This document shows positions 4,527 to 22,280 of a stretch of 23,613 bases of DNA, piece after piece. Below the pieces are notes generated by a model. That model saw only the letters and a list, made by a program, of their open reading frames with translations. It was not told the DNA's origin and ran no database searches. The stretch is from a virus (lineage: Duplodnaviria > Heunggongvirae > Uroviricota > Caudoviricetes): IMG/VR virus record IMGVR_UViG_2617270938_000001; one strand, 5' to 3'. How positions within the stretch are numbered: the first letter of the stretch is position 1; every line of letters begins with the position of its first letter. A program made the translations under genes and the position numbers.

Positions 4527-5087
4527 TATCGCGTCCTCAACAATGAATTTTGTGATGCGGTGCCTGGTGCCTCCAGGTGACGTTAACCAGTTAACAATTA
4601 ACGCCGGATACAGAGAATCCACCCATAACACTGTTTTTGGTTTTAACTGTTCCGCGTGCGCTCAGCCGCATTCACCACATCACAAAATTCACTTTAAAAA
4701 GGGCGGCAGAGCAGTCACGGAGTAAAACTGATACCGCCAAACGTCACCAGAAAATTGATAACAGAGGGCGTTGCAGCGGGGTTGTCACTTAAGCGTATGG
4801 TCAACCTGACAACCCGGTGTCCTCAACGGGGAAGGAATACCCCCGCCATACTTACCGCCGCGCCATTTCGCGGAGTGCCACAACCGGAAGCGCACGGTCG
4901 ACGAAAATTTAACGACAGGCTATCTATGAACCAACAACTTCGCCGTGTGCTTTCGCGTTATGCCCTGACTTTTCAGGGAAATATCCTTTCAGTAAACTGT
5001 CAGTGCCGGATGCTCACCCGTGTCCGGCGCACGCACTCCACCTCACCCGTGGAGAACTCCTTAATCACCAACCCTCAGGAGGGTGAA

Positions 5088-5363
5088 ATGTCGACTGAAA
5101 ATGATGAAATCATTAACTCCCTGATACGCCAGATTAATAATTTTGATAAAGCATTGCAACATGCTGCGGCGCGTAGTGATATAACTCTTTTAGCAATTTC
5201 ATTTCTTGCATCTGTTATGGATAAAAATGAAGTCGTACGACAGAGTCTTGTTGATTATATCGACTCGCTTCAACCCGGCACTTTCAATCATGAGAGCTTC
5301 AATCATGAGAAAGAGCATGTTAAGTCTGTAATTAATTCTCTTATTTTGAATCAAAAGAATTAA
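5088..5363 (+). CDS. hypothetical protein (91 aa) on the opposite strand inside the leftward operon, AT-rich (moron-like)
   Basis: Strong SD AGGAGGG 4 nt before ATG 5088 (MSTENDEIINSLIRQINNF...). Low-GC segment. The upstream part of ORF 4755..5363 has no SD and looks like run-in. Confidence 0.5.
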   Translation: MSTENDEIINSLIRQINNFDKALQHAAARSDITLLAISFLASVMDKNEVVRQSLVDYIDSLQPGTFNHESFNHEKEHVKSVINSLILNQKN

Positions 5364-5661
5364 TGCTTTTTGTTGCAAAGTAATTTTCAAGGGGTTCTAT
5401 TCGAATCCCTTTCTTTTTCATTAACAAGCCAAACCCCTTATCAATGATGTCCATTAGATCCAGGAAGTATTTTTCATGTAAATCCTGGTTATCAGAGAGC
5501 TGCTTCTCTTCGTACAGCCCGATAAAGGCTCGGCGCACGTTACCGGATATAGTATCGATGGTTTCTTTTTCTATGGTACTCAGGTCAAGAGTCGCCAGTT
5601 GGGAACGAACTATAATCACTGCCATTTCCTGGAATTGCATTGGTAAATCTTTAAATTCCAT
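5341..5661 (-). CDS. hypothetical protein (106 aa)
   Basis: GAGG SD 7 nt upstream of the ATG at 5661; acidic protein MEFKDLPMQFQEM.... Its 3' end overlaps the 3' end of the convergent 5088..5363 gene by 23 bp. Confidence 0.5.
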   Translation of the reverse strand: MEFKDLPMQFQEMAVIIVRSQLATLDLSTIEKETIDTISGNVRRAFIGLYEEKQLSDNQDLHEKYFLDLMDIIDKGFGLLMKKKGIRIEPLENYFATKSINSFDSK

Positions 5662-7764: not shown

Positions 7765-8835
7765 ATGGCTAACGCCTGGCTCAGATTATGGCATGACATG
7801 CCAAATGACCCTAAGTGGCGAACAATTGCCAGGGTGTCAGGACAGCCAATTGCAACAGTGATGGCAGTGTATATCCACCTCCTGGTGAGCGCGTCACGAA
7901 ATGTCACGCGAGGTCACATTGATGTCACGACAGAAGATTTGGCAAGTGCGCTCGACGTGACAGAAGAGGTAATTGATTCAATTTTGCAGACGATGCAGGG
8001 GCGGGTACTTGATGGTGATTTAATCACTGGATGGGAAAAACGCCAGGTGCTTAAAGAGGACAACGGCAATATTTCGCAAACCGCAAAATCTCCTGCAGAG
8101 CGCAAGAGGGCGCAGCGAGAGAGGGAAAGAAAGCGGGAACAAAATGGCGATTGTCACGGCGCGTCACGAAATGTCATGCACATGTCACGACGAGTCACGA
8201 CAGATAAAGATACAGATAAAGATACAGATCAAGAAGATCAAAACACTATGGTCCATGGCGTAAAAAACGCCACGAACCAGGCAGGGGATGTTCAGACCGT
8301 CACTCCTGGCCAGCCCGCAGGCACGACACCGGAAGCCGATTCAGCGTATGCGCTGAAAGCCGATTCGGGCGCTGTGCAGCAGGTGATGACCGCAAGGCAG
8401 GAGCAATCACACCAACTGCAGCAGCCTGAAGCCGATTCCGCCATTCAGCGGGAAGCCGATCGGGTAGTCCCGGAAAACACCGGGCAGTCTGTGGGACGAG
8501 TGGATTATCCGGATGTGTTCGAACAGGTCTGGCGGGAGTACCCGTTGCGTGCTGGGGCAAACCCGAAGAAATCCGCTTTCAGTGCCTGGAAGGCCAGATT
8601 ACGCGAGGGGGTGCCACCAGAGGCCATGCTGGATGGCGTGAGGCGTTACGCAAGATACCTGGCGGCTACCGGGAAAACGGGAACGGAATTTGTTCAGCGA
8701 GCGACGACTTTTTTTGGACCGGACCGGAATTTTGAGAACCCCTGGTTGCTCCCGGTAAGCGGCACGAACAACCAGCGTTGTGTGAATCATATTTCTGAAC
8801 CGGATACCGAAATTCCACCGGGCTTCAGGGGGTAA
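7765..8835 (+). CDS. phage replication initiator / replisome organiser (lambda O-like role) with internal iterons
   Basis: ATG 7765 with AAGAGG SD 5 nt upstream (the track ORF starts at GTG 7759). Position after the cro-like pair; contains two clusters of TGTCACG iterons (see repeat features), analogous to ori inside lambda O. Confidence 0.65.
   Translation: MANAWLRLWHDMPNDPKWRTIARVSGQPIATVMAVYIHLLVSASRNVTRGHIDVTTEDLASALDVTEEVIDSILQTMQGRVLDGDLITGWEKRQVLKEDNGNISQTAKSPAERKRAQRERERKREQNGDCHGASRNVMHMSRRVTTDKDTDKDTDQEDQNTMVHGVKNATNQAGDVQTVTPGQPAGTTPEADSAYALKADSGAVQQVMTARQEQSHQLQQPEADSAIQREADRVVPENTGQSVGRVDYPDVFEQVWREYPLRAGANPKKSAFSAWKARLREGVPPEAMLDGVRRYARYLAATGKTGTEFVQRATTFFGPDRNFENPWLLPVSGTNNQRCVNHISEPDTEIPPGFRG
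7889..7937. repeat. iteron cluster 1 (GTCACG-type repeats at about 10-bp spacing) inside the replication gene
   Basis: GCGCGTCACGAAATGTCACGCGAGGTCACATTGATGTCACGACAGAAG; a near-copy of cluster 2 about 270 bp downstream. Confidence 0.6.
8153..8230. repeat. iteron cluster 2 (five GTCACG/GTCATG repeats, 10-11 bp phasing) plus adjacent tandem ACAGATAAAGAT x2
   Basis: GTCACGGCGCGTCACGAAATGTCATGCACATGTCACGACGAGTCACGACAG followed by ATAAAGATACAGATAAAGATACAGATCAAG (encoding DKDTDKDTDQ). Confidence 0.6.
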
Positions 8836-8875
8836 GTGTGTATTTCTGGTCATGAGGTAATTTTCAGGAGGGCTT

Positions 8876-9298
8876 GTGGCAAAAGTTTTTACACAAGAAG
8901 AGCGGGAAAAAATTAAAGGGCAGGTTCTTGAACTCGTACGCCAGAGTGGGCGCGAGACGTTACGACAACTGGAAGCTAAAACTGGGGCAACAAGATATCT
9001 GATGAGCGTTCTGGCCAGAGAGCTGGTTGCCAGTGGCGATGTATACAACTCTGGTTACGGGTTATTCCCGTCTGAACAGGCGCGTAAGGACTGGCAAAAT
9101 GCCCGTAAAAAGCTCTCAAGGGCAAAGCTGAAGAAACCATCTGCGGTTGATCCGGACCTTATCTGGTCATTACCTGACGGAGAAATACGTCGCTACGACA
9201 GGCGTCAGAACATAATCTGTCGCGAGTGCCGGAAGAGCGAAGTTATGCAGCGCATATTGTCGTTTTATCAGGGTAATTTTCAGAAGGTGCTGTTGTGA
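8876..9298 (+). CDS. hypothetical basic protein (140 aa), occupies the slot where a helicase loader would be expected but is too short for one
   Basis: GTG start with AGGAGGG SD; Cys-X2-Cys (CRECRK) near the C-terminus. No recognisable motif. Confidence 0.5.
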   Translation: MAKVFTQEEREKIKGQVLELVRQSGRETLRQLEAKTGATRYLMSVLARELVASGDVYNSGYGLFPSEQARKDWQNARKKLSRAKLKKPSAVDPDLIWSLPDGEIRRYDRRQNIICRECRKSEVMQRILSFYQGNFQKVLL

Positions 9299-9403
9299 GC
9301 CAAATTAACAATCGGAACTTCGTGAAGAGAAAGCATAATCCAAATCTGAATAATTAAGTTCAGCACTGTAAATAAAATTTAATCCTTAACTGGAGGTATA
9401 TCT

Positions 9404-9616
9404 ATGTCAAATACACAGAAAATTATTAACACTGAAAAATATAACGAGTGGGTGAAAAAATTCTCTGAACAGATTTTTAAAATTACTGGCGACGAGAATG
9501 TGGCAAAAAATGAATTAGAACCGTGGACACCTGAAGGAAACGCACCAAATTATTGCTGGTGGGAAGTTGATCCGGTTGATGCTGCAAATGAAGCCATGAG
9601 TTACCACAACGATTAA
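9404..9616 (+). CDS. hypothetical protein (70 aa), AT-rich island
   Basis: GGAGG SD 7 nt upstream of the ATG; preceded by about 100 bp of AT-rich intergenic DNA. Confidence 0.55.
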   Translation: MSNTQKIINTEKYNEWVKKFSEQIFKITGDENVAKNELEPWTPEGNAPNYCWWEVDPVDAANEAMSYHND

Positions 9617-9648
9617 TGTCGGGAGGCCGCCCGAAAGGGCGGTAAGAA

Positions 9649-9867
9649 ATGACTACATTATTCAGAAAAGAATATCCGCAAAAAAGTAGAGCGACAGAAT
9701 TTTTGTTTCTCATTCTGTTTATCGTATTGATGATACCGATATCCCCTCTAATTTTTGTCTGGGCAATCGGGAAAATAATTGAGCCAGTTACTGAATTGTA
9801 TACCGACGTTGTATGGGCGTCGTTCAACACACTGCACAATAAAATTAATCCGTATAAGGAAAACTGA
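9649..9867 (+). CDS. small membrane protein (72 aa, one predicted TM helix)
   Basis: Hydrophobic stretch FLFLILFIVLMIPISPLIFVWAIG. The start is preceded by a CCGCCC-GAAA-GGGCGG hairpin. Confidence 0.5.
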   Translation: MTTLFRKEYPQKSRATEFLFLILFIVLMIPISPLIFVWAIGKIIEPVTELYTDVVWASFNTLHNKINPYKEN

Positions 9868-9868
9868 T

Positions 9869-10132
9869 ATGGCAACTTTGACAAAAAAAGAACGGGCATG
9901 GTTGAACGAATTACAGGAAGTTCTTGATCGCTGTCCATCACCGAAAAAAATTGGCTTTTACACCATTGGCGATAAAAGCATTTACCTGTATGACCTACGC
10001 CGCATGGATGAAATCATGGAGGCTCTTGATAATCGTTCGTCGATGGATTGGTGTGTTGCTGTTCATGATATGAATGCAGGGTTTGATGAAAAGATTTTGT
10101 TCCCCTCATCAGTTGAAAGCACTGCGGGTTAA
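9869..10132 (+). CDS. hypothetical protein (88 aa)
   Basis: ATG 9869 with AAGGA SD, 1 nt after the stop of the preceding gene (MATLTKKERAWLNELQEVLDRC...). The track ORF 9779..10132 is the same frame with upstream run-in. Confidence 0.5.
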   Translation: MATLTKKERAWLNELQEVLDRCPSPKKIGFYTIGDKSIYLYDLRRMDEIMEALDNRSSMDWCVAVHDMNAGFDEKILFPSSVESTAG

Positions 10133-10142
10133 GGAGTAACAC

Positions 10143-10310
10143 ATGACCACTATTACCAAAGAACGTATTGAATTGTTCATTAAAAACCCGCTTGAAAACG
10201 GGCTTACCCGTGGTGAACAAATGGAACTGGCACGGATTGCGCTGGCATCGCTGGAAGCAGAGCCGGTTGTGTTCTGGTTTGAAAAATATCAAGAAGGGGC
10301 TACGGCATGA
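10143..10310 (+). CDS. small protein (55 aa), short paralog of the next gene; not in the ORF track
   Basis: Hand-translated [55 protein letters not shown]; strong SD AAGGAG 6 nt upstream; its stop overlaps the next start (ATGA). Confidence 0.5.
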
Positions 10311-10651
10311 CGACTTTTACCAGAGAGCAGTTAATAGCTCACGCAGAGGAGACTATTGAAGCACAGAGACTGTGCATACCGGGCACAATCGACCATGACA
10401 TCATCCGCACATATAAGATGGATATTGCTGTTCTGGAAATCGCACTGGTATCGCTGGCAGCAGAGCCAGCCGGTAAATTGCATGAATACAAACCAGTGGG
10501 ATATCAGCGTCTGGTCGATGAGTTAACCATGCTGGTAAAGCAGTTAACCTGGCAACTGAGGAAAGCGAAGCCAGACTGCAAATTACCGGATAAGGCGATG
10601 AGTTATCTGGAGCGGAACGGACTGATAAGCGTGGAGGATATTTTACGATGA
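10307..10651 (+). CDS. hypothetical protein (114 aa), paralogous at the N-terminus and the ALxSLxAEP motif to the 55-aa gene
   Basis: [10 protein letters not shown]... with [10 protein letters not shown] versus [10 protein letters not shown] in the upstream gene; translationally coupled. Confidence 0.55.
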
Positions 10652-10731
10652 CCTGGCCTGAAGCATTAACAACGGTAGGAATTGCGATGGCGGTGGCGCT
10701 GGTGGTGTATTCGATTTGCCGCTGGGGATAA
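10648..10731 (+). CDS. possible 27-aa hydrophobic micropeptide ([27 protein letters not shown])
   Basis: ATGA overlap with the upstream stop and GGAGG about 10 nt upstream; a single TM-like segment. Very short, so speculative. Confidence 0.25.
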
Positions 10732-10942
10732 AAACGGTTTGCGGGAAAAGGAGAGTTAAGTAGAATTGCAGCGGGTGCTTGAGGCTATCTGTCTCAGGCA
10801 TGAACACCAAAAGGCAGATAGAGAAAAGCCCCAGTTAACATTACGCGTCCGGCAAGACGCTTAACATTAATCTGAGGCCATATCTATGCTCTACACACGT
10901 AGGTTAGCCTCTTACGTGCCGAAAGGCAAGGAGAAGCAGGCT

Positions 10943-11098
10943 ATGAAGCAGCAAAAGGCGATGCTAATCGCCCTGATCGTCATCTGTTTAACCGTCATTG
11001 TGACGGCACTGGTAACGAGGAAAGACCTCTGCGAGGTACGAATCCGAACCGGCCAGACGGAGGTCGCTGTCTTCACAGCTTACGAACCTGAGGAGTAA
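10943..11098 (+). CDS. hokD: Hok/Gef-family type I toxin (51 aa; matches my recollection of E. coli HokD/RelF)
   Basis: MKQQKAMLIALIVICLTVIVTALVTRKDLCEVRIRTGQTEVAVFTAYEPEE. AGGAGA SD 8 nt upstream. An in-frame upstream extension from ATG 10886 gives a 70-aa mok-like ORF. Confidence 0.9.
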   Translation: MKQQKAMLIALIVICLTVIVTALVTRKDLCEVRIRTGQTEVAVFTAYEPEE

Positions 11099-11165
11099 GA
11101 GACCAGGCGGGGGAGAATCCCTCGCCACCTCTGATGTGTCAGGCATCCTCAACGCACCCGCACTT

Positions 11166-11192
11166 AACCCGCTTCGGCGGGTTTTGTTTTTT
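11166..11192 (+). terminator. rho-independent terminator after hok
   Basis: AACCCGC-TTCG-GCGGGTT stem-loop followed by TTTTGTTTTTT. Confidence 0.7.
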
Positions 11193-11264
11193 CCTAGCAT
11201 TCTGGTTTACAATTCGCACACCAGCCTGAACAACTGGCACCTGCTGCGCCAGCAGAGACAACCG

Positions 11265-11544: not shown

Positions 11545-12591
11545 GTGCGGGTATTACTTCGACCTGTTCTGGTACCGGAACTCGGGCTGGTGATCGTTAA
11601 GCCGGGCCGTGAATCCATGCCGGTATTCCACAATACCCGGGTACTGGTGGAGCCGGAACCGAAAAGCATGCGTAATCTGCCGTCCGGGGTCGTTCCTGCC
11701 GTTCGCCAGCCGCTGGTGGAAGACAAAACATTGCTGCCGTTTTTCAGTAACGCACGGGTAATTCGTGCTGCTGGTGGTGCTGGTGCATTGTCTGACTGGC
11801 TGTTGCGCAATATTAAATCCTGCCAGTGGCCACACGGCGATTATCATCACAGCGAAACCGTTATTCACCGTTATGGTACCGGCGCAATGGTGTTGTGCTG
11901 GCACTGCGACAACCAGCTGCGTGACCAGACATCCGAATCACTCGAGCAACTTGCTCATCAAAACCTGTCAGCATGGATGATTGACGTCATCGGTCACGCA
12001 ATAAGCGGTACGCAGGAGCGTGAATTATCTCTGGCTGAATTATCCTGGTGGGCGGTCCGCAATCAGGTGGCGGACGCGCTACCGGAAGCGGTATTACGTC
12101 GTTCGCTGGGGTTGCGTGCGGAAAAAATCCGCTCAATGTACCGTGAAAGCGACATCGTACCGGGAGAGCAGACCGCCACCAGCATACTGAAGCAGCGCAC
12201 AAAAAATCTTGCGCCGCTGCCTCACGCCCACCAGCAAACCCCGCCACAGGAAGAGACGGTGGTCAGCATTGCCGTTGATCCTGAGTCTCCGGAATCTTTC
12301 ATGAAACGACCTAAACGTCGCCGCTGGGTTAACGAGAAATACACACGCTGGGTGAAGACACAGCCGTGTGCGTGTTGTGGTAAGCCAGCCGACGATCCCC
12401 ATCACCTGATTGGTCATGGTCAGGGCGGAATGGGGACAAAATCTCACGATATTTTCACGCTACCGCTGTGTCGGGAGCATCACAACGAGCTTCATGCGGA
12501 TCCTCTGGCGTTCGAAGAAAAGCATGGTTCTCAGGTTGATTTAATTTTTCGTTTTCTTGATCACGCCTTTGCAACTGGCGTGCTTGGGTAA
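11545..12591 (+). CDS. DUF968-family protein (YdfU-like) with C-terminal Cys/His zinc-binding, HNH-like motif
   Basis: 348 aa, GTG start with GGAGG SD. C-terminus: CACCGKPADDPHHLIGHGQGGMGTKSHDIFTLPLCREHHNELH. Position between hok and Q matches ydfU in Qin. Confidence 0.65.
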   Translation: MRVLLRPVLVPELGLVIVKPGRESMPVFHNTRVLVEPEPKSMRNLPSGVVPAVRQPLVEDKTLLPFFSNARVIRAAGGAGALSDWLLRNIKSCQWPHGDYHHSETVIHRYGTGAMVLCWHCDNQLRDQTSESLEQLAHQNLSAWMIDVIGHAISGTQERELSLAELSWWAVRNQVADALPEAVLRRSLGLRAEKIRSMYRESDIVPGEQTATSILKQRTKNLAPLPHAHQQTPPQEETVVSIAVDPESPESFMKRPKRRRWVNEKYTRWVKTQPCACCGKPADDPHHLIGHGQGGMGTKSHDIFTLPLCREHHNELHADPLAFEEKHGSQVDLIFRFLDHAFATGVLG

Positions 12592-12603
12592 AAGAGGTGA
12601 CTG

Positions 12604-12978
12604 ATGCTCATAGATTTGGTTTTACCTTACCCGCCGACGGTGAACACTTACTGGCGACGCCGTGGCAGCACATATTTTGTATCAAAAGCCGGGGAGCGTT
12701 ATCGCCGGGCAGTGGCGCTTATTGTTCGCCAGCAGCGGCTGAAATTAAGCCTGTCCGGAAGGCTGGCGATAAAGGTGATTGCAGAGCCACCGGATAAGCG
12801 TCGTCGCGACCTGGACAATATCCTGAAAGCACCGCTGGATGCGCTGACGCATGCGGGAGTGTTAATGGACGATGAGCAGTTTGATGAAATCAATATCGTT
12901 CGTGGTCAGCCAGTATCTGGTGGACGTCTGGGGGTGAAGATTTACCCCATAATGCATGAAGAGCAGGTCAAAAAATGA
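12604..12978 (+). CDS. rusA: Holliday junction resolvase RusA
   Basis: 124 aa with PPTVNTYWRRRG and RRRDLDNILKAPLDAL, matching the RusA motifs I recall (PPSNNRYYR... / RRRDLDNLQKA...). AGAGG SD. Confidence 0.85.
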   Translation: MLIDLVLPYPPTVNTYWRRRGSTYFVSKAGERYRRAVALIVRQQRLKLSLSGRLAIKVIAEPPDKRRRDLDNILKAPLDALTHAGVLMDDEQFDEINIVRGQPVSGGRLGVKIYPIMHEEQVKK

Positions 12979-13796
12979 AACTGGAAGATTTACCGAAATA
13001 CTACTCCCCAAAATCCCCCGGCCTGACTGATGCATCGGCCTCAACGTCGAAAGATGCGCTGAGTATCACTGATGTGATGGCCGCGCAGGGCATGACACAG
13101 AATCGGGCTGAGATGGGGTTTTCTGCGTTCCTTGGGAAAATGGGCATCAGTATGAATGACAGGGCGCGGGCAACAGAATTACTGGCAGATTATGCACTCA
13201 GTCGGTGCGATCGTGTGGCGGCGTTGAGAAAACTTCCGGCAGAAATAAAACCGGTAGTGATGCGCATTATGGCTTCGTACGCTTTTGAGGATTATGCCCG
13301 CAGCGCAGCGAGTAAAAAGCAGTGCCCTTGTTGCTATGGGGAAAAATTTATTGAAAGCATAGTTTTTACAAACAAGGTCCAGTATCCGGATGGTAAGCCG
13401 CCGGTATGGGCAAAGTGTACGAAAGGTGTGTATCCGTCTTACTGGGAAGAATGGAAAAAAGTCAGGGAGGTGGTAAAAGTTGCCTGTCCGGAGTGTGGCG
13501 GAAAGGGTGAGGTTTCCACCGCCTGTAAGGATTGCCGTGGGCGTGGTGTCGCCATTCATCGTGAAGAGTCGGTAAAACGTGGTATGCCTGTTATCAGAGA
13601 CTGCCAGCGTTGTGATGGTCGTGGCTGTGAAAGACTACCATCAACGGAGGCATTTAATGCCATACGCAAAGTGACGAGTGCTATCACGCTTGATACGTGG
13701 AAAAAATCAGTGAAACGCTTTTACGATACGTTGGTGGTTCGGTTTGACATTGAAGAGGCATGGGCGGAGCGGCAGTTAAAGAGGGTAACGCGATAG
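12975..13796 (+). CDS. late-gene antitermination protein Q (82/21/933W type)
   Basis: 273 aa with a Cys-rich zinc motif (CPECGGKGEVSTACKDCRGRG ... CQRCDGRG). Overlaps the rusA stop (ATGA); followed immediately by a promoter/terminator pair. Confidence 0.8.
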   Translation: MKLEDLPKYYSPKSPGLTDASASTSKDALSITDVMAAQGMTQNRAEMGFSAFLGKMGISMNDRARATELLADYALSRCDRVAALRKLPAEIKPVVMRIMASYAFEDYARSAASKKQCPCCYGEKFIESIVFTNKVQYPDGKPPVWAKCTKGVYPSYWEEWKKVREVVKVACPECGGKGEVSTACKDCRGRGVAIHREESVKRGMPVIRDCQRCDGRGCERLPSTEAFNAIRKVTSAITLDTWKKSVKRFYDTLVVRFDIEEAWAERQLKRVTR

Positions 13797-15469: not shown

Positions 15470-15540
15470 GGCCCTTTAGCTCAGTGGTGAGAGCGAGCTA
15501 AAGGGCCGGGTCGCTGGTTCAAATCCAGCAAGGGCCACCA
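15470..15540 (+). tRNA. tRNA-Ile-like element with aberrant anticodon arm (probable tRNA pseudogene)
   Basis: Acceptor GGCCCTT/AAGGGCC, D-arm GCTC-AGTGGTGA-GAGC, T-arm GCTGG-TTCAAAT-CCAGC and 3' ACCA are intact. The anticodon-arm region is 12 nt (AGCTAAAGGGCC) instead of 17 and is perfectly complementary to the element's own 5' end. Confidence 0.5.
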
Positions 15541-15549
15541 TATCACATA

Positions 15550-15626
15550 CCACCATTAGCTCATCGGGATAGAGCGCCAGCCTTCGAAGCTGGTTGCGCG
15601 GGGTTCGAGTTCTCGATGGCGGTCCA
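15550..15626 (+). tRNA. tRNA-Arg (anticodon TCG)-like; candidate tRNA with imperfect stems
   Basis: D-arm GCTC-ATCGGGATA-GAGC; anticodon arm CCAGC-CTTCGAA-GCTGG; T-loop TTCGAGT; 3' CCA. One A-C mismatch in the acceptor stem and two G-T pairs in the T-stem. Confidence 0.45.
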
Positions 15627-15882: not shown

Positions 15883-16080
15883 ATTGTCTGGCTGCCGGAG
15901 AATTTGTTAAAAATAACATCGCATGGTGAATCCCCCTCAGCGGCGGGGCATCTGGCAAAGTGTATGATCCAGAGAACATGCAAATTCAGTAGACAGGCTG
16001 AATTTACCGGGAGGCCCCTGGCACCATGCGACAGACAGAAATTAGGCTATACTTCAGCCCCTCTCCGGAGGGGCTTTTCT
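15883..16080 (+). ncRNA. candidate noncoding RNA element A (about 198 nt), paralog of element B, ending in intrinsic terminator AGCCCCTC-TCCG-GAGGGGCT + TTTT
   Basis: Shares blocks with 16352-16545 (ATTGTCTGGC, TTTGTTAAAAA, CGCATGGTGAATCCCCCT, GAATTnACCGGGAGGCnCCnGGCACCATGC, identical terminator hairpin). The overlapping ORFs are on different strands in the two copies, arguing against a shared protein. Confidence 0.45.
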
Positions 16081-16268
16081 GTGCAGGATGTGTCACAGTT
16101 TCCTGAATTCTGAGTACTGTCCTGTTACTCAGGGTGCTATATTTTCTGACGTGATGAAAGTCTGCCGGAAGGCGGAACGTATCGGAAATGACCCAGTAGA
16201 GAAAACGTTGACTCAGATACCGATGCTGAGTTACCGGGAAACCGGCATCACATGACCGCTATCCTTCC

Positions 16269-16351: not shown

Positions 16352-16545
16352 ATTGTCTGGCCGGCGGGAAGTTTGTTAAAAAATTTCGCATGGTGAATCC
16401 CCCTGTGCGGAGGGGTAATCAGCGAGTAGGTATATGGGATAATCGCGGATTCAGGTGCTGGTACTGAATTCACCGGGAGGCACCCGGCACCATGCAATGG
16501 CACATAGCGCCACTCTCCAGCCCCTCTCCGGAGGGGCTGTTTATA
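16352..16545 (+). ncRNA. candidate noncoding RNA element B (about 194 nt), paralog of element A, same terminator hairpin (16519-16538)
   Basis: See element A. The conserved 5' block, the GGTGAATCCCCCT block, the GGGAGGC block and the terminator are retained while the middle has diverged. Confidence 0.45.
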
Positions 16546-16573
16546 TTGATTTTGTCAGATGTGAGTAAACTCC

Positions 16574-16909
16574 TTATGGACTTTGTTGTTTTAGTCCATA
16601 AGGACATATTTGCAGAGTGCAACGGTTATTAAAGCATTCATTCAATACGTTATCTGTATTTGTAGGGCATTCCTGGCTGTTTTTGATTAAATTCCAGAAT
16701 GTTTTATTGAATGGTACTACGTTGTAAATGGTTACAGGTAGCACTTTGTTATTGAGCATGATACCTGTGTGAGTCAGTGTAAATATACTTTCAGGAGGTA
16801 AGAAAGCATCCGATTGATACCAGATTATTAATTTTACTTTACTCCATATGACTGAAAAAGATATTCCGCATGATGGCTGGATAACTGTATCAATCACAAT
16901 CCACTTCAT
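16574..16909 (-). CDS. IraM/YcgW-family protein (anti-adaptor-like), AT-rich moron on the opposite strand
   Basis: 111 aa, [22 protein letters not shown]...IIWYQS...FLPP...ECP...ICPYGLK, matching my recollection of E. coli IraM from memory (not searched). AAGGAAG SD 6 nt upstream. Local GC is much lower than the flanks; a perfect 11-bp inverted repeat (16584-16615) covers the last codons. Confidence 0.6.
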
Positions 16910-17169
16910 TTAGCTTCCTTGTTTATGCCTTGCTGGTGATGTTCTGAAAAGTATAAATGATATTTTTGAATATAAACCATAGAGCAGAATTATTTTTCTG
17001 ATGTTGTTTATTGTTTATTTAAATGCAGGGTGGTTTATATCTCGTCTTGTAGTTTATCCATGCATATCTGCTTGATGATCAGGTTTCTATTTAAGGTATG
17101 GTTTTGTGTTTTTTCTGTGTTACATGTCTGGTATTTTAAAGAATTATTTTTCAGATGGTGGAAAGAACC

Positions 17170-17358
17170 ATGGCATTTAAACACTATGATGTTGTCAGGG
17201 CGGCGGCGCCGTCAGATCTTGCGGAAAAGCTGACACATAAACTGAAAGAGGGCTGGCAGCCGTTTGGTAGTCCGGTGGCCATAACCCCTTATACCCTGAT
17301 GCAGGCGATTGCAGCAGAAGGTGATGTGGTGGTCAGTGGTGCAACTGAGCCGGAGTGA
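17170..17358 (+). CDS. small conserved hypothetical protein (62 aa) upstream of the holin (possibly DUF1737-like)
   Basis: MAFKHYDVVRAAAPSDLAEKLTHKLKEGWQPFGSPVAI...; position just before the lysis cassette. Family name is recalled, not verified. Confidence 0.45.
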   Translation: MAFKHYDVVRAAAPSDLAEKLTHKLKEGWQPFGSPVAITPYTLMQAIAAEGDVVVSGATEPE

Positions 17359-19131: not shown

Positions 19132-19497
19132 ATGAACCGCGTACTGTGCGTGGTCATCATTGCCCTGCTGGTGGCCTGTGGTGCGCTTAGTCTGGGGCTG
19201 AATCATTACCGTGATAACGCCATAACCTACAAAGAGCAGCGCGATAAAAAAGTCAGTGAGCTGGAGCAGGCAAATGCAACCATTACTGATATGCAGCAGC
19301 GCCAGCGTGATGTTGCTGTACTTGATGCCAGATACTCGAGGGAATTAGCCGATGCGAGAGCTGAAAATGAAACTCTGCGCGCTGACGTTGCCGCTGGTCG
19401 TAAGCGCCTGCGGATCAACGCCACCTGCCCCGGTACCCGAACACGGCACTGGTCGGCGTGCAGGTGGACTCGGAACAGTTCGGCAGCCAGCAGGTGA
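19132..19497 (+). CDS. i-spanin Rz, N-terminal ~90 aa only; C-terminus replaced by out-of-frame J sequence (likely pseudogene); no Rz1 found
   Basis: [93 protein letters not shown] closely parallels lambda Rz; similarity is lost at about 19400-19420 where the J frame opens. Confidence 0.7.
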
Positions 19498-22280
19498 GCC
19501 GTAATTATCATCTTCGCGGGCGCATTCTGCAGGTGCCGTCGAACTATAACCCGCAGACGCGGCAATACAGCGGTATCTGGGACGGAACGTTTAAGCCAGC
19601 ATACAGCAACAACATGGCCTGGTGTCTGTGGGATATGCTGACCCATCCGCGCTACGGCATGGGGAAGCGTCTCGGTGCGGCGGATGTGGACAAATGGGCG
19701 CTGTATGTCATCGGCCAGAATTGCGACCAGTCGGTGCCGGATGGCTTTGGTGGCACGGAGCCGCGCATCACCTGTAATGCCTACCTGACCACACAGCGCA
19801 AGGCGTGGGATGTTCTCAGTGATTTCTGCTCGGCGATGCGCTGTATGCCGGTATGGAACGGGCAGACGCTGACGTTCGTGCAGGACCGACCGTCGGATAA
19901 GGTGTGGACCTATAACCGCAGTAATGTGGTGATGCCGGATGATGGCGCGCCGTTCCGCTACAGCTTCAGTGCCCTGAAGGACCGTCATAATGCCGTTGAG
20001 GTGAACTGGATTGACCCGGATAACGGCTGGGAGACGGCGACAGAGCTTGTTGAAGATACGCAGGCCATTGCCCGTTACGGTCGTAACGTCACGAAGATAG
20101 ATGCCTTTGGCTGTACCAGCCGGGGGCAGGCACATCGCGCCGGGCTGTGGCTGATTAAAACAGAACTGCTGGAAACGCAGACCGTGGACTTCAGCGTGGG
20201 TGCTGAAGGGCTTCGCCATGTGCCGGGCGATGTCATTGAAATCTGTGATGATGACTATGCCGGTATCAGCACCGGTGGTCGCGTGCTGGCGGTGAACAGC
20301 CAGACCCGGACGCTGACGCTCGACCGTGAAATCACGCTGCCATCCTCCGGTACCACGCTGATAAGCCTGGTTGACGGTCAGGGTAATCCGGTCAGCGTGG
20401 AGGTCCAGTCCGTCACCGACGGCGTGAAGGTGAAAGTGAGCCGTGTTCCTGACGGCGTTGCCGGATACAGCGTGTGGGGGCTGAAGCTGCCGACGCTGCG
20501 CCAGCGCCTGTTCCGCTGCGTGAGTATCCGTGAGAACGACGACGGCACGTATGCCATCACCGCCGTGCAGCATGTACCGGAAAAAGAAGCCATCGTGGAT
20601 AACGGGGCGCACTTTGACGGCGACCAGAGCGGCACGGTGAATGGTGTCACGCCGCCAGCGGTGCAGCATCTGACCGCAGAAGTCACCGCAGACAGCGGGG
20701 AATACCAGGTGCTGGCCCGCTGGGACACGCCGAAGGTGGTGAAGGGCGTGAGCTTCCTGCTTCGCCTGACCGTGGCAGCGGATGACGGCAGTGAGCGGCT
20801 GGTCAGCACGGCCCGGACGACGGAAACCACTTACCGCTTCACACAACTGGCTCTGGGGAACTACAGGCTGACAGTCCGGGCAGTAAATGCGTGGGGGCAG
20901 CAGGGCGATCCGGCGTCGGTATCGTTCCGGATTGCCGCACCGGCAGCGCCGTCGCGGATTGAGCTGACGCCGGGCTATTTTCAGATAACCGCCACGCCGC
21001 ATCTTGCGGTTTATGATCCGACGGTACAGTTTGAGTTCTGGTTCTCGGAAAAGCGGATTGCGGATATCAGGCAGGTTGAAACCACAGCACGCTATCTTGG
21101 GACGGCGCTGTACTGGATAGCCGCCAGTATCAATATCAGGCCGGGTCATAATTATTATTTTTACGTTCGCAGTGTGAACACCGTTGGCAAATCGGCATTC
21201 GTGGAGGCTGTTGGTCAGCCGAGTGATGACGCATCCGGCTATCTGGATTTTTTCAAAGGCGAGATAGGGAAAACCCATCTGGCTCAGGAGCTGTGGACGC
21301 AGATTGATAACGGTCAGCTTGCGCCTGACCTGGCTGAAATCAGAACATCCATTACGGATGTCAGCAATGAAATCACACAGACCGTCAATAAGAAACTGGA
21401 AGACCAGAGTGCGGCAATTCAGCAGATACAGAAGGTTCAGGTTGATACAAATAATAACCTGAACAGCATGTGGGCTGTGAAGCTGCAGCAGATGCAGGAC
21501 GGACGCCTTTATATCGCGGGTATTGGTGCCGGTATTGAGAACACCCCTGACGGCATGCAGAGTCAGGTGCTGCTGGCGGCAGACAGGATTGCGATGATTA
21601 ATCCTGCGAATGGCAACACAAAGCCGATGTTTGTTGGGCAGGGCGATCAGATATTCATGAACGACGTGTTCCTGAAACGCCTGACGGCTCCCACCATTAC
21701 CAGCGGCGGTAATCCTCCGGTATTTTCCCTGACACCGGACGGGCGGCTGACGGCGAAAAATGCCGATATCAGCGGTAACGTGAATGCGAACTCCGGGACG
21801 CTCAACAACGTCACGATTAACGAGAACTGTCGGGTTCTGGGAAAACTGTCTGCGAACCAGATTGAAGGCGATCTCGTTAAAACAGTGGGCAAAGCTTTCC
21901 CCCGGGACTCCCGTGCACCGGAGCGGTGGCCATCAGGGACCATTACCGTCAGGGTTTATGACGATCAGCCGTTTGACCGGCAGATTGTTATTCCCGCGGT
22001 GGCGTTTCGTGGCGCTAAACATGAGCGGGAGAATAACGATATTTATTCGTCATGCCGCCTGATGGTGAAGAAAAACGGTGCTGAAATTTATAACCGTACC
22101 GCGCTGGATAATACGCTGGTTTATACAGGTGTTATTGATATGCCTGCTGGTCGCGGTCACATGACGCTGGAGTTTTCGGTATCAGCGTGGCTGGTAAATG
22201 ACTGGTATCCCACAGCCAGTATCAGTGATTTGCTGGTTGTGGTGATGAAGAAATCCACAGCAGGTATCACGATTAGCTGA
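19404..22280 (+). CDS. J: tail-tip host specificity protein J, 5'-truncated (C-terminal ~940-960 codons; no upstream J sequence, start codon or promoter of its own)
   Basis: Long high-GC ORF with the size, position (immediately before lom and stf) and motifs expected of lambda J's C-terminal two-thirds. The frame is open from 19404; the track ORF begins at GTG 19458. Head and tail-shaft genes are absent upstream. Confidence 0.8.

Follow-up and report, generated by a model that had tools for sequence, protein, structure and literature searches.

Organization of the block

The DNA analysed here, referred to below as the window, is a 23,613-nucleotide (nt) stretch of a virus (Caudoviricetes; IMG/VR record IMGVR_UViG_2617270938_000001). 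The whole stretch is a Rac-like lambdoid prophage of Escherichia coli, adjoining ompW. Our subject is a block of six small genes at positions 9299–10731, in which the gene for a DUF4014 membrane protein carries a GC-rich hairpin between its Shine–Dalgarno (SD) sequence and its start codon. The block and the spacer that precedes its first gene contain the following features.

9299–9403 (+), AT-rich intergenic spacer after the DUF977 gene, GC 0.31
9404–9616 (+), gene for an acidic protein of 70 amino acids (aa), phrog_4659
9621–9626 (+), Shine–Dalgarno sequence GGGAGG of the DUF4014 gene
9627–9642 (+), GC-rich hairpin CCGCCC-GAAA-GGGCGG
9649–9867 (+), gene for a 72-aa DUF4014 single-pass membrane protein
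9869–10132 (+), gene for an 87-aa protein, phrog_1714
10143–10310 (+), gene for a 55-aa protein, a stand-alone Eaa-type N-module with a 14-aa tail
10307–10651 (+), gene for a 114-aa protein, a minimal two-module Eaa-type protein
10648–10731 (+), gene for a 27-aa hydrophobic micropeptide

The open reading frames (ORFs), the hairpin and the motifs described in the initial annotation were all found where it had placed them. The 70-aa and 72-aa genes are separated by 32 nt, the 72-aa and 87-aa genes by 1 nt, and the 87-aa and 55-aa genes by 10 nt, while the 55/114 and 114/27 junctions are ATGA overlaps; three of the five junctions are thus either a 1-nt gap or an ATGA. The spacer ends in TTTAATCCTTAACTGGAGG, which is the SD of the 70-aa gene (GGAGG at 9392–9396), and SD spacing is 6–10 nt for every gene of the block except DUF4014. 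In a 99.6%-identical genome, the RefSeq annotation (PGAP) calls the first five ORFs and omits the 27-aa ORF. The fall in GC content previously noted after the replication module is real, although confined to the first part of the block: GC is 0.31 in the spacer, 0.37 in the 70-aa gene, 0.36 in the DUF4014 gene and 0.42 in the 87-aa gene, whereas the last three genes (0.46–0.54) lie close to the window mean of 0.50.

The DUF4014 membrane protein

The 72-aa product matches PF13198 along its whole length (residues 1–72 on model positions 1–72) with 91.8 bits against a cut-off of 23.2, and phrog_1832 at E = 2e-45. DUF4014 is the sole Pfam match at E ≤ 0.001 among the six products. A Kyte–Doolittle profile gives one hydrophobic span at about residues 17–40, with a 15-residue maximum of 3.02 at residues 18–32, and four basic residues (R6, K7, K12 and R14) precede it, in keeping with the earlier description of a single-transmembrane (TM) protein. 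The start codon at 9649 is fixed by an in-frame TAA two codons upstream (9643–9645).

Homologues from E. coli lambdoid and Shiga toxin (Stx) phages, including L0067 of phage 933W, are more than 90% identical to one another, and all 28 sequence variants are 72 aa long. Identity falls to 47–51% in epsilon15 gp46, g341c gp23, ES18 gp39 and HK225 gp56. The window protein resembles L0067, epsilon15 gp46, ES18 gp39 and HK225 gp56 in being a 72-aa, single-TM protein with ea-type neighbours. The initiation regions differ: translation of the epsilon15, ES18, g341c and HK225 copies is coupled to that of the gene before them, whereas the window copy has a hairpin-type initiation region.

Two functional labels attached to DUF4014 homologues were set aside. 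“O-polysaccharide acetyltransferase inhibitor” is inherited from an older epsilon15 annotation, and the current record lists gp46 as hypothetical; “released from the phage upon host infection” is likewise inherited and was traced to no experiment. Literature searches on DUF4014 and on the acetyltransferase-inhibitor label returned nothing.

A hairpin fills the space between SD and start codon

The SD of the DUF4014 gene ends at 9626 and its AUG starts at 9649, leaving 22 nt between them. The hairpin, which had been correctly located between GGGAGG and ATG, occupies 16 of these and leaves 6 nt, or 5 nt if the G9626–U9643 pair forms. Its loop is a GNRA tetraloop, and the stem has an energy of −12.4 kcal/mol, or −14.4 kcal/mol with the additional pair. 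When folded in a 141-nt context, the hairpin forms with a probability of about 1.0 and G9626, the last residue of the SD, pairs with U9643 with a probability of 0.94. In the same context the SD core GGAG is unpaired with a probability of 0.68–0.93, and the spacer and AUG are mostly unpaired. Folding of the 37-nt region gave z = −4.3 relative to shuffled sequences.

No GGAG or GAGG lies 4–12 nt from the DUF4014 AUG, and this AUG is the only start codon that the GGAGG within 9621–9626 could serve. The window was scanned on both strands at each ATG, GTG and TTG that begins a frame of 40 codons or more, and the SD–hairpin–start arrangement occurred at no other gene start.

To assess conservation, 84 loci encoding close DUF4014 homologues were compared. 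The whole unit, consisting of (A/G)GGAGG, the hairpin, TAA(G/T)(A/G)A and ATG, is shared by 66 of them, in two unrelated upstream contexts; the remaining 18 have a plain SD 4–6 nt from the start and no hairpin. The (A/G)GGAGG is kept in all hairpin-type loci except one, irrespective of the upstream sequence. The register of the hairpin is constant, at 6 nt to the DUF4014 AUG and 0 nt to the SD, while its distance from the end of the upstream gene varies, from 10 nt here to about 66 nt in phage ArgO145. Six hairpin variants were found, among them a C-to-T change in the 5′ arm and another in the 3′ arm (both retaining a G-U pair), a GGAA loop and two pair-breaking singletons.

A putative split ribosome-binding site

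This anatomy is closely paralleled in phage T4, where split initiation regions have been described (Nivinskas et al. 1999; Malys & Nivinskas 2009; reviewed in PMC3014915). An intervening hairpin shortens the SD–AUG spacing of T4 gene 38 (22 nt) to 5 nt and that of gene 25 (27 nt) to 11 nt, and mutations that destabilise these hairpins lower translation (PMC3014915). The gene 25-type structure is shared by close relatives and absent from distant ones (PMC3014915). The DUF4014 gene resembles gene 38 in having a strong SD 22 nt from the AUG with a stable hairpin wholly between them, and its residual spacing of 6 nt compares with 5–11 nt in the two T4 genes. As with gene 25, the structure occurs in close relatives and is absent from distant DUF4014 genes. 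The setting differs from that of T4, being a temperate lambdoid prophage with no sequence similarity, and the stem here is a 6–7 bp GNRA hairpin abutting the SD, with a role that we infer from sequence alone.

On these grounds, the SD, hairpin and AUG of the DUF4014 gene would form a split, structure-bridged ribosome-binding site (RBS) that enhances initiation. The gene would carry its own initiation cassette, composed of a strong SD, a stable 16-nt GNRA hairpin, 6 nt and the AUG; once folded, the hairpin would loop out 16 of the 22 nt between SD and AUG and restore a functional spacing. The hairpin thus probably helps DUF4014 translation rather than blocking it. To our knowledge, the split RBS mechanism has been documented so far in T-even phages alone, in genes 38 and 25.

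Several observations weigh against this assignment. Minimum-free-energy folds add weak pairings of 3–4 bp that touch the UG of the AUG, and a weak SD-like AAGGG (9635–9639), 9 nt from the AUG, is sequestered inside the hairpin. Variation within the hairpin is sparse: the changes compatible with its structure are of three kinds, no pair of compensatory changes occurs, and each of the two singletons disrupts one pair. The sequences of the IMG/VR scans were too alike for covariation, and the scan of genome contigs provided only 3 loci. Conservation of the hairpin is inseparable from the conservation of the cassette overall, which exceeds 90%. In addition, distant DUF4014 genes (47–64% identity; epsilon15, g341c, ES18 and HK225 among them) are without the hairpin.

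The initial annotation had proposed that the hairpin may occlude a ribosome-binding site, and in its fuller form this alternative would make it a negative element that sequesters an RBS determinant and keeps the membrane protein low until it is melted or unfolded by an upstream ribosome. The buried AAGGG, which spans the loop and 3′ arm and has a workable spacing, would be such a determinant. The pairing of the SD residue G9626 with U9643 points the same way, as does a weak outer helix between GUCG (9617–9620) and UGAC (9650–9653) that leaves the SD within an internal loop and contacts the AUG. Small membrane proteins are also often toxic and held at low levels. Against this, the stem does not include the GGGAGG/AGGAGG, which is strong and conserved. 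Because the core of this SD is 68–93% unpaired and the AUG is mostly unpaired, the hairpin covers neither the strong SD nor the start codon; only the weak internal AAGGG is sequestered. An SD at 22 nt would be useless with the hairpin open, so its strict conservation can be explained only if the hairpin is folded during initiation. The outer helix has only 3–4 bp, and the stop codon of the 70-aa gene lies 10 nt before the stem, so that a terminating ribosome need not melt it. We consider a negative role unlikely, and the proposed direction of the effect is probably wrong.

Slightly less improbable, while still unlikely in our judgement, is a function unrelated to initiation, in which the hairpin serves as an element of mRNA stability or processing (a 3′ barrier or a protective 5′ end) or marks the boundary of a recombination module. 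GC-rich GNRA hairpins are generic exonuclease barriers, the position 10 nt past the 70-aa stop is intergenic, and the flanking sequences differ between loci, as at a mosaic joint. Such a role is opposed by the register, which is fixed to the AUG and the SD and not to the upstream gene. Other readings of the hairpin were rejected. An intrinsic terminator is contradicted by the lack of a U-run on either strand (the stem is followed by TAAGAAATGACT), and the terminator scan listed the hairpin on neither strand. A lambda-type nut/boxB site would have a pentaloop rather than a tetraloop, and there is no boxA and the position is mid-operon. The stem is too short for an RNase III site, and at −12 to −14 kcal/mol it is too stable for a thermosensor to be likely. 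The split RBS remains the reading that we prefer for the hairpin.

The 70-aa and 87-aa proteins belong to families of unknown function

The genes flanking DUF4014 each have one PHROG match, to a family of unknown function. The 70-aa protein matches phrog_4659 at E = 4.8e-51 and has no match in Pfam, NCBIfam, PADLOC or the Protein Data Bank (PDB). Its family is narrow: a search of 1.84 billion representatives found only about four related clusters (50% identity), and further matches, to giant proteins, were spurious. A homologue in phage ArgO145 occupies another position within the ea region of that phage. The 87-aa protein matches phrog_1714 and is confined to Enterobacterales prophages. Sequence searches of the PDB with the 70-, 87- and 114-aa proteins gave no match, and structure-based searches with the products of the block returned no informative neighbours.

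The 70-aa gene has the appearance of a cassette that entered between two motifs, each with an SD. In loci that lack it, the motif TTTAATCCTTAAC(C/T)GGAGG lies about 25 nt 5′ of the SD and hairpin. In such loci TTTAATCCTTAACCGGAGG is found about 25 nt before AGGAGG and the hairpin (window 9378–9403 and 9617–9626, compared with 5298–5384 of locus L002), and the intervening sequence GGAGGGATTTCTGCACCCTC could form a small stem.

All six products of the block belong to existing families of unknown function, namely DUF4014, phrog_4659, phrog_1714 and the Eaa-type module family. They gave no match to lambda nin-region models (NinB, NinG, NinH, Rus or similar) in Pfam or PHROG, and searches of PADLOC-DB at E ≤ 0.1 with the six products and the DUF977 protein returned zero families. 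NCBIfam likewise gave no match for any of the six. The earlier view of the block as a cluster of small accessory genes is therefore upheld by Pfam, NCBIfam and PHROGs, where none of the genes falls in a nin-region or known-benign family; nin-region families of benign function, the alternative that the initial annotation had raised for homology searches, were not matched.

Module shuffling accounts for the 55-aa and 114-aa proteins

These two products have in common an N-terminal module of about 50 aa that starts MTTxT(K/R)E and is found in proteins named Eaa, DUF550 and DUF551. Through their first ~50 residues they match one common set of PHROGs (phrog_3323, phrog_60, phrog_660 and phrog_5117), with best E-values of 1.3e-19 for the 55-aa protein (which matches phrog_3323, phrog_60 and phrog_660) and 8e-43 for the 114-aa protein. 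Neither has a Pfam or NCBIfam match at E ≤ 0.1, Ead_Ea22 (IPR025153) included. Alignment of the family gives an architecture of an N-module, a variable middle and an optional C-module (ELTMLVKQL...). The 114-aa protein is the minimal N-plus-C form, with the N-module at residues 1–55, a linker and the C-module at 70–114. Among its 120 listed homologues, 17 contain the N-module only, 57 the C-module only (the C-terminal 45 residues) and 46 both. An AlphaFold2 model is all-alpha, with a helical hairpin for the N-module (pLDDT ~90) and otherwise loosely connected helices, and the protein has no PDB match by sequence and no specific match by fold.

These two genes had been regarded as a paralog pair arising by tandem duplication with divergence. 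The N-terminal similarity on which this rested is real, with 33% identity over 54 columns (BLASTP, E = 1e-5); the genes are adjacent, overlap by ATGA and share the pattern MTTxT...IALxSLxAEP. A local duplication is nonetheless hard to reconcile with the much closer similarity of each protein to N-modules elsewhere. Over its first ~42 residues the 55-aa protein is 85–100% identical to homologues that bear the names Eaa, DUF550 or DUF551, and residues 1–52 of the 114-aa protein are 96–100% identical to DUF551 proteins including P0304 and P0306, while the mutual identity of the pair is just 33%. Recombinant forms also exist: P0271 is a natural chimera of a 55-aa-type N-module and a 114-aa-type C-module, and the 14-residue tail of the 55-aa protein recurs after three different N-module variants. 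Because of this recurrence, the short form appears to be a maintained type rather than a random truncation. From these comparisons, the 55-aa and 114-aa genes were brought together by module shuffling within the Eaa family, and we regard tandem duplication as very improbable.

Similar mosaicism is known for the Ea22/Ead-like proteins of lambda and Stx phages and for P22 eaA, which have a shared N-terminus and interchangeable C-domains (PMC10834534, PMC7093339). Like P22 eaA and the Ea22/Ead-like proteins, the window proteins are early accessory, mosaic and arranged in tandem arrays. They differ from Ea22 in being far shorter, with no long central coiled coil and no sequence match to the C-terminal domain of lambda Ea22, and phmmer found no match of either to PDB Ea22 chains. 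The pro-lysogenic phenotype reported for Ea22 is not transferable to them.

The sole experimental handle found on any protein with the N-module is YfdT of E. coli K-12 (101 aa, prophage CPS-53; NC_000913.3, locus L214, 7874–8179), which over 54 residues shares 41% identity with the 114-aa protein (E = 2e-5). The two have the N-module in common (MTTFT...IALVSLEVEP) and differ in their C-terminal halves. In multicopy, yfdQ and yfdR together with yfdS or yfdT inhibit initiation at oriC (Noguchi & Katayama 2016, PMC4776307); yfdQ and yfdR, which are needed for this CPS-53 effect, are absent from the block.

A conserved gene for a predicted 27-aa membrane peptide closes the block

The 27-aa hydrophobic ORF that had been noted to overlap the last stop is a genuine gene by several measures. 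Intact alleles always have 27 codons, with frameshifted or truncated copies at a few loci. A GGAGG of its own precedes the start by 7–10 nt. Among alleles with as little as 67% nucleotide identity, pairwise dN/dS values are 0.13–0.63, and the positions kept are W-P-(E/D)-A-F, G11 and I-C-R-W-G. The start overlaps the stop of the preceding gene, which is either a C-module gene (...VEDILR) or a DUF551 gene (...PPQEVNQ), and downstream lies a hok/sok locus or one of several different terminators. By tblastn the ORF occurs in 91 phage records. Among 5426 complete E. coli genomes, blastn detected it in 1634, with as many as 7 copies in a single genome. These comparisons of sequence provide good evidence for a real, conserved small membrane-protein gene, the peptide of which is presumably translated.

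Annotation of this ORF is sparse. It is missing from the annotations of 933W, WGPS2, POCJ13 and the PGAP genome examined, although a small number of submitters have annotated it, and a literature search with the peptide sequence found no match. Its similarity to DUF883_C is weak and sub-threshold (E = 0.029, 14.5 bits, cut-off 27). Some copies are labelled “DUF551 domain-containing protein”, and in a table of 90%-identity clusters (those of P0369 and P0384) the peptide falls together with DUF551 proteins 121 and 185 aa long; automated naming could be misled. The possibility that the peptide is the C-terminal tail of DUF551 proteins was rejected, as those proteins end in ...PPQEVNQ without it and the grouping appears to be a clustering artefact. 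A natural deletion variant, P0269 (11 member sequences, 7 contigs), fuses the 114-aa N-part in frame to the 27-aa peptide; its product, corresponding to window 10307–10731, is 114 aa long with a membrane tail.

Prophage setting

The region 8800–11200 of the window is 99–100% identical to E. coli chromosomes, and at least 80% of it is found in 104 of 5426 complete genomes. The sole 100%-identical genome in the collection (NZ_AP022105.1, 2680869–2684617) carries an insertion of about 1.35 kb of IS421 (IS4-like) within the equivalent stretch, which is absent from the window. In the 99.6%-identical genome (L001), the coding sequences from left to right are ompW, integrase, excisionase, exonuclease, dicB, racR, a helix-turn-helix (HTH) gene (ydaS-like) and ydaT, then an O-like replication gene, a DUF977 gene, five small hypothetical coding sequences and hokD. 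Genes for DUF968, RusA and antiterminator Q lie further right, and ORFs of matching size are found at 11545–13796 of the window. The block is thus placed between the replication genes (O-like and DUF977) and the hokD/sok locus. The DUF977 protein of the window matches a PHROG labelled “Ren-like exclusion protein”.

Other annotated elements of the window are as follows.

4701–4752 (−), DicF antisense small RNA (sRNA), Rfam
10773–10948, sok/hok element, Rfam sok match of 117 bits
10886–11098, mok ORF with a Hok Pfam domain
11166–11193, strong intrinsic terminator, the one convincing terminator downstream of the block in the terminator scan
15470–15623 (+), two tRNAs, Rfam
15891–16084 and 16360–16548 (+), STnc100 sRNA in two tandem copies (139 and 133 bits), Rfam

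A complete hokD/mok/sok type I toxin–antitoxin locus (10773–11193) lies directly 3′ of the block, and the gene order of Ea-type gene, 27-aa ORF and sokW/hokW is common to phage 933W. Elsewhere in the window, an island of GC 0.32–0.34 (16600–17200) surrounds a 111-aa ORF on the minus strand (16574–16909), annotated as iraM-like in a related genome, and an island of GC 0.58–0.65 (19400–21000) lies within a 940-aa ORF at 19458–22280.

Early accessory cassettes and their likely expression

The genes of the block recur in other phages in different combinations and positions. ArgO145 has the 70-aa, DUF4014 and 114/27-aa units, with other genes between them, close to int in its leftward ea region, and the place of the 87-aa and 55-aa genes is taken by an HNH endonuclease gene. 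The DUF4014 gene lies between eaD/eaE-like and eaA-like genes in epsilon15, g341c and ES18. In HK225, as in the window, ea-type genes occupy the interval between ren and the nin region. Because the contexts in these five phages differ, the cassettes are position-independent genes of the ea type rather than nin genes.

From the replication genes to 11166–11193 the terminator scan found no terminator-like site of any strength, and promoter-like sites were no commoner than in shuffled sequence (3 found, 3.8 expected). No terminator precedes 11166 and the genes lie close together or overlap, so that the block would most simply form the last section of the rightward early operon and be switched on at induction along with the replication genes. 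We infer this shared transcript solely from absent consensus signals, a basis that tells against this part of the interpretation. The 27-aa gene would be a translationally coupled small membrane-protein gene closing the operon, and its product and the DUF4014 protein are predicted from their sequences to be inner-membrane proteins.

Alternatively, the block might be a moron or an island of defence genes that is active while the prophage is repressed, with superinfection exclusion by its two membrane proteins, or with products that act as host-takeover toxins; exclusion and takeover were the functions suggested in the initial annotation. The low GC of the first three genes is typical of acquired cargo, two of the products are small membrane proteins, the neighbouring DUF977 protein has its Ren-like PHROG match, and the hok/sok addiction module follows directly. 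On the other hand, no PADLOC model was matched, the genes are packed into the early operon, promoter-like sites do not exceed the shuffled expectation and the block has no terminator of its own. Lytic-competent Stx and P22-like phages also have these cassettes, in their early-left operon, and the functional labels on DUF4014 homologues are inherited, with epsilon15 gp46 now listed as hypothetical. An exclusion or takeover island appears improbable to us.

We favour, with somewhat better than even confidence, a reading of the block as a set of mosaic early accessory cassettes, in which the DUF4014 gene has a split RBS, the Eaa-type proteins are products of module shuffling and a real 27-aa gene closes the operon.

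Implications

The block is ordinary overall. Everything in it is of a known kind, comprising families of unknown function, lambdoid mosaicism and an initiation architecture of the T4 type, and the understanding of lambdoid biology is unchanged by these findings. Their practical value lies mostly in annotation. For the adjacent 55-aa and 114-aa “hypothetical proteins”, membership of the Eaa family by module shuffling is a better description than duplication, and a conserved 27-codon gene for a membrane peptide, carried by roughly a third of E. coli genomes, has been overlooked by RefSeq in well-studied phages, including 933W.

A broader proposal can be offered tentatively. A functional split RBS in a temperate lambdoid phage may set the dosage of DUF4014, and an expressed, largely unannotated family of 27-aa inner-membrane peptides may close ea operons in about 30% of E. 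coli genomes; we hold this combination to be possible and less probable than not. Together with DUF4014, the 27-aa peptide might have an effect at the envelope, through exclusion, the timing of lysis or the modulation of a transporter, for instance. If the split RBS is indeed functional, the hairpin would represent a compact natural example outside the T-even phages, and start-codon and RBS predictors that rely on linear SD spacing could misjudge genes of this kind.

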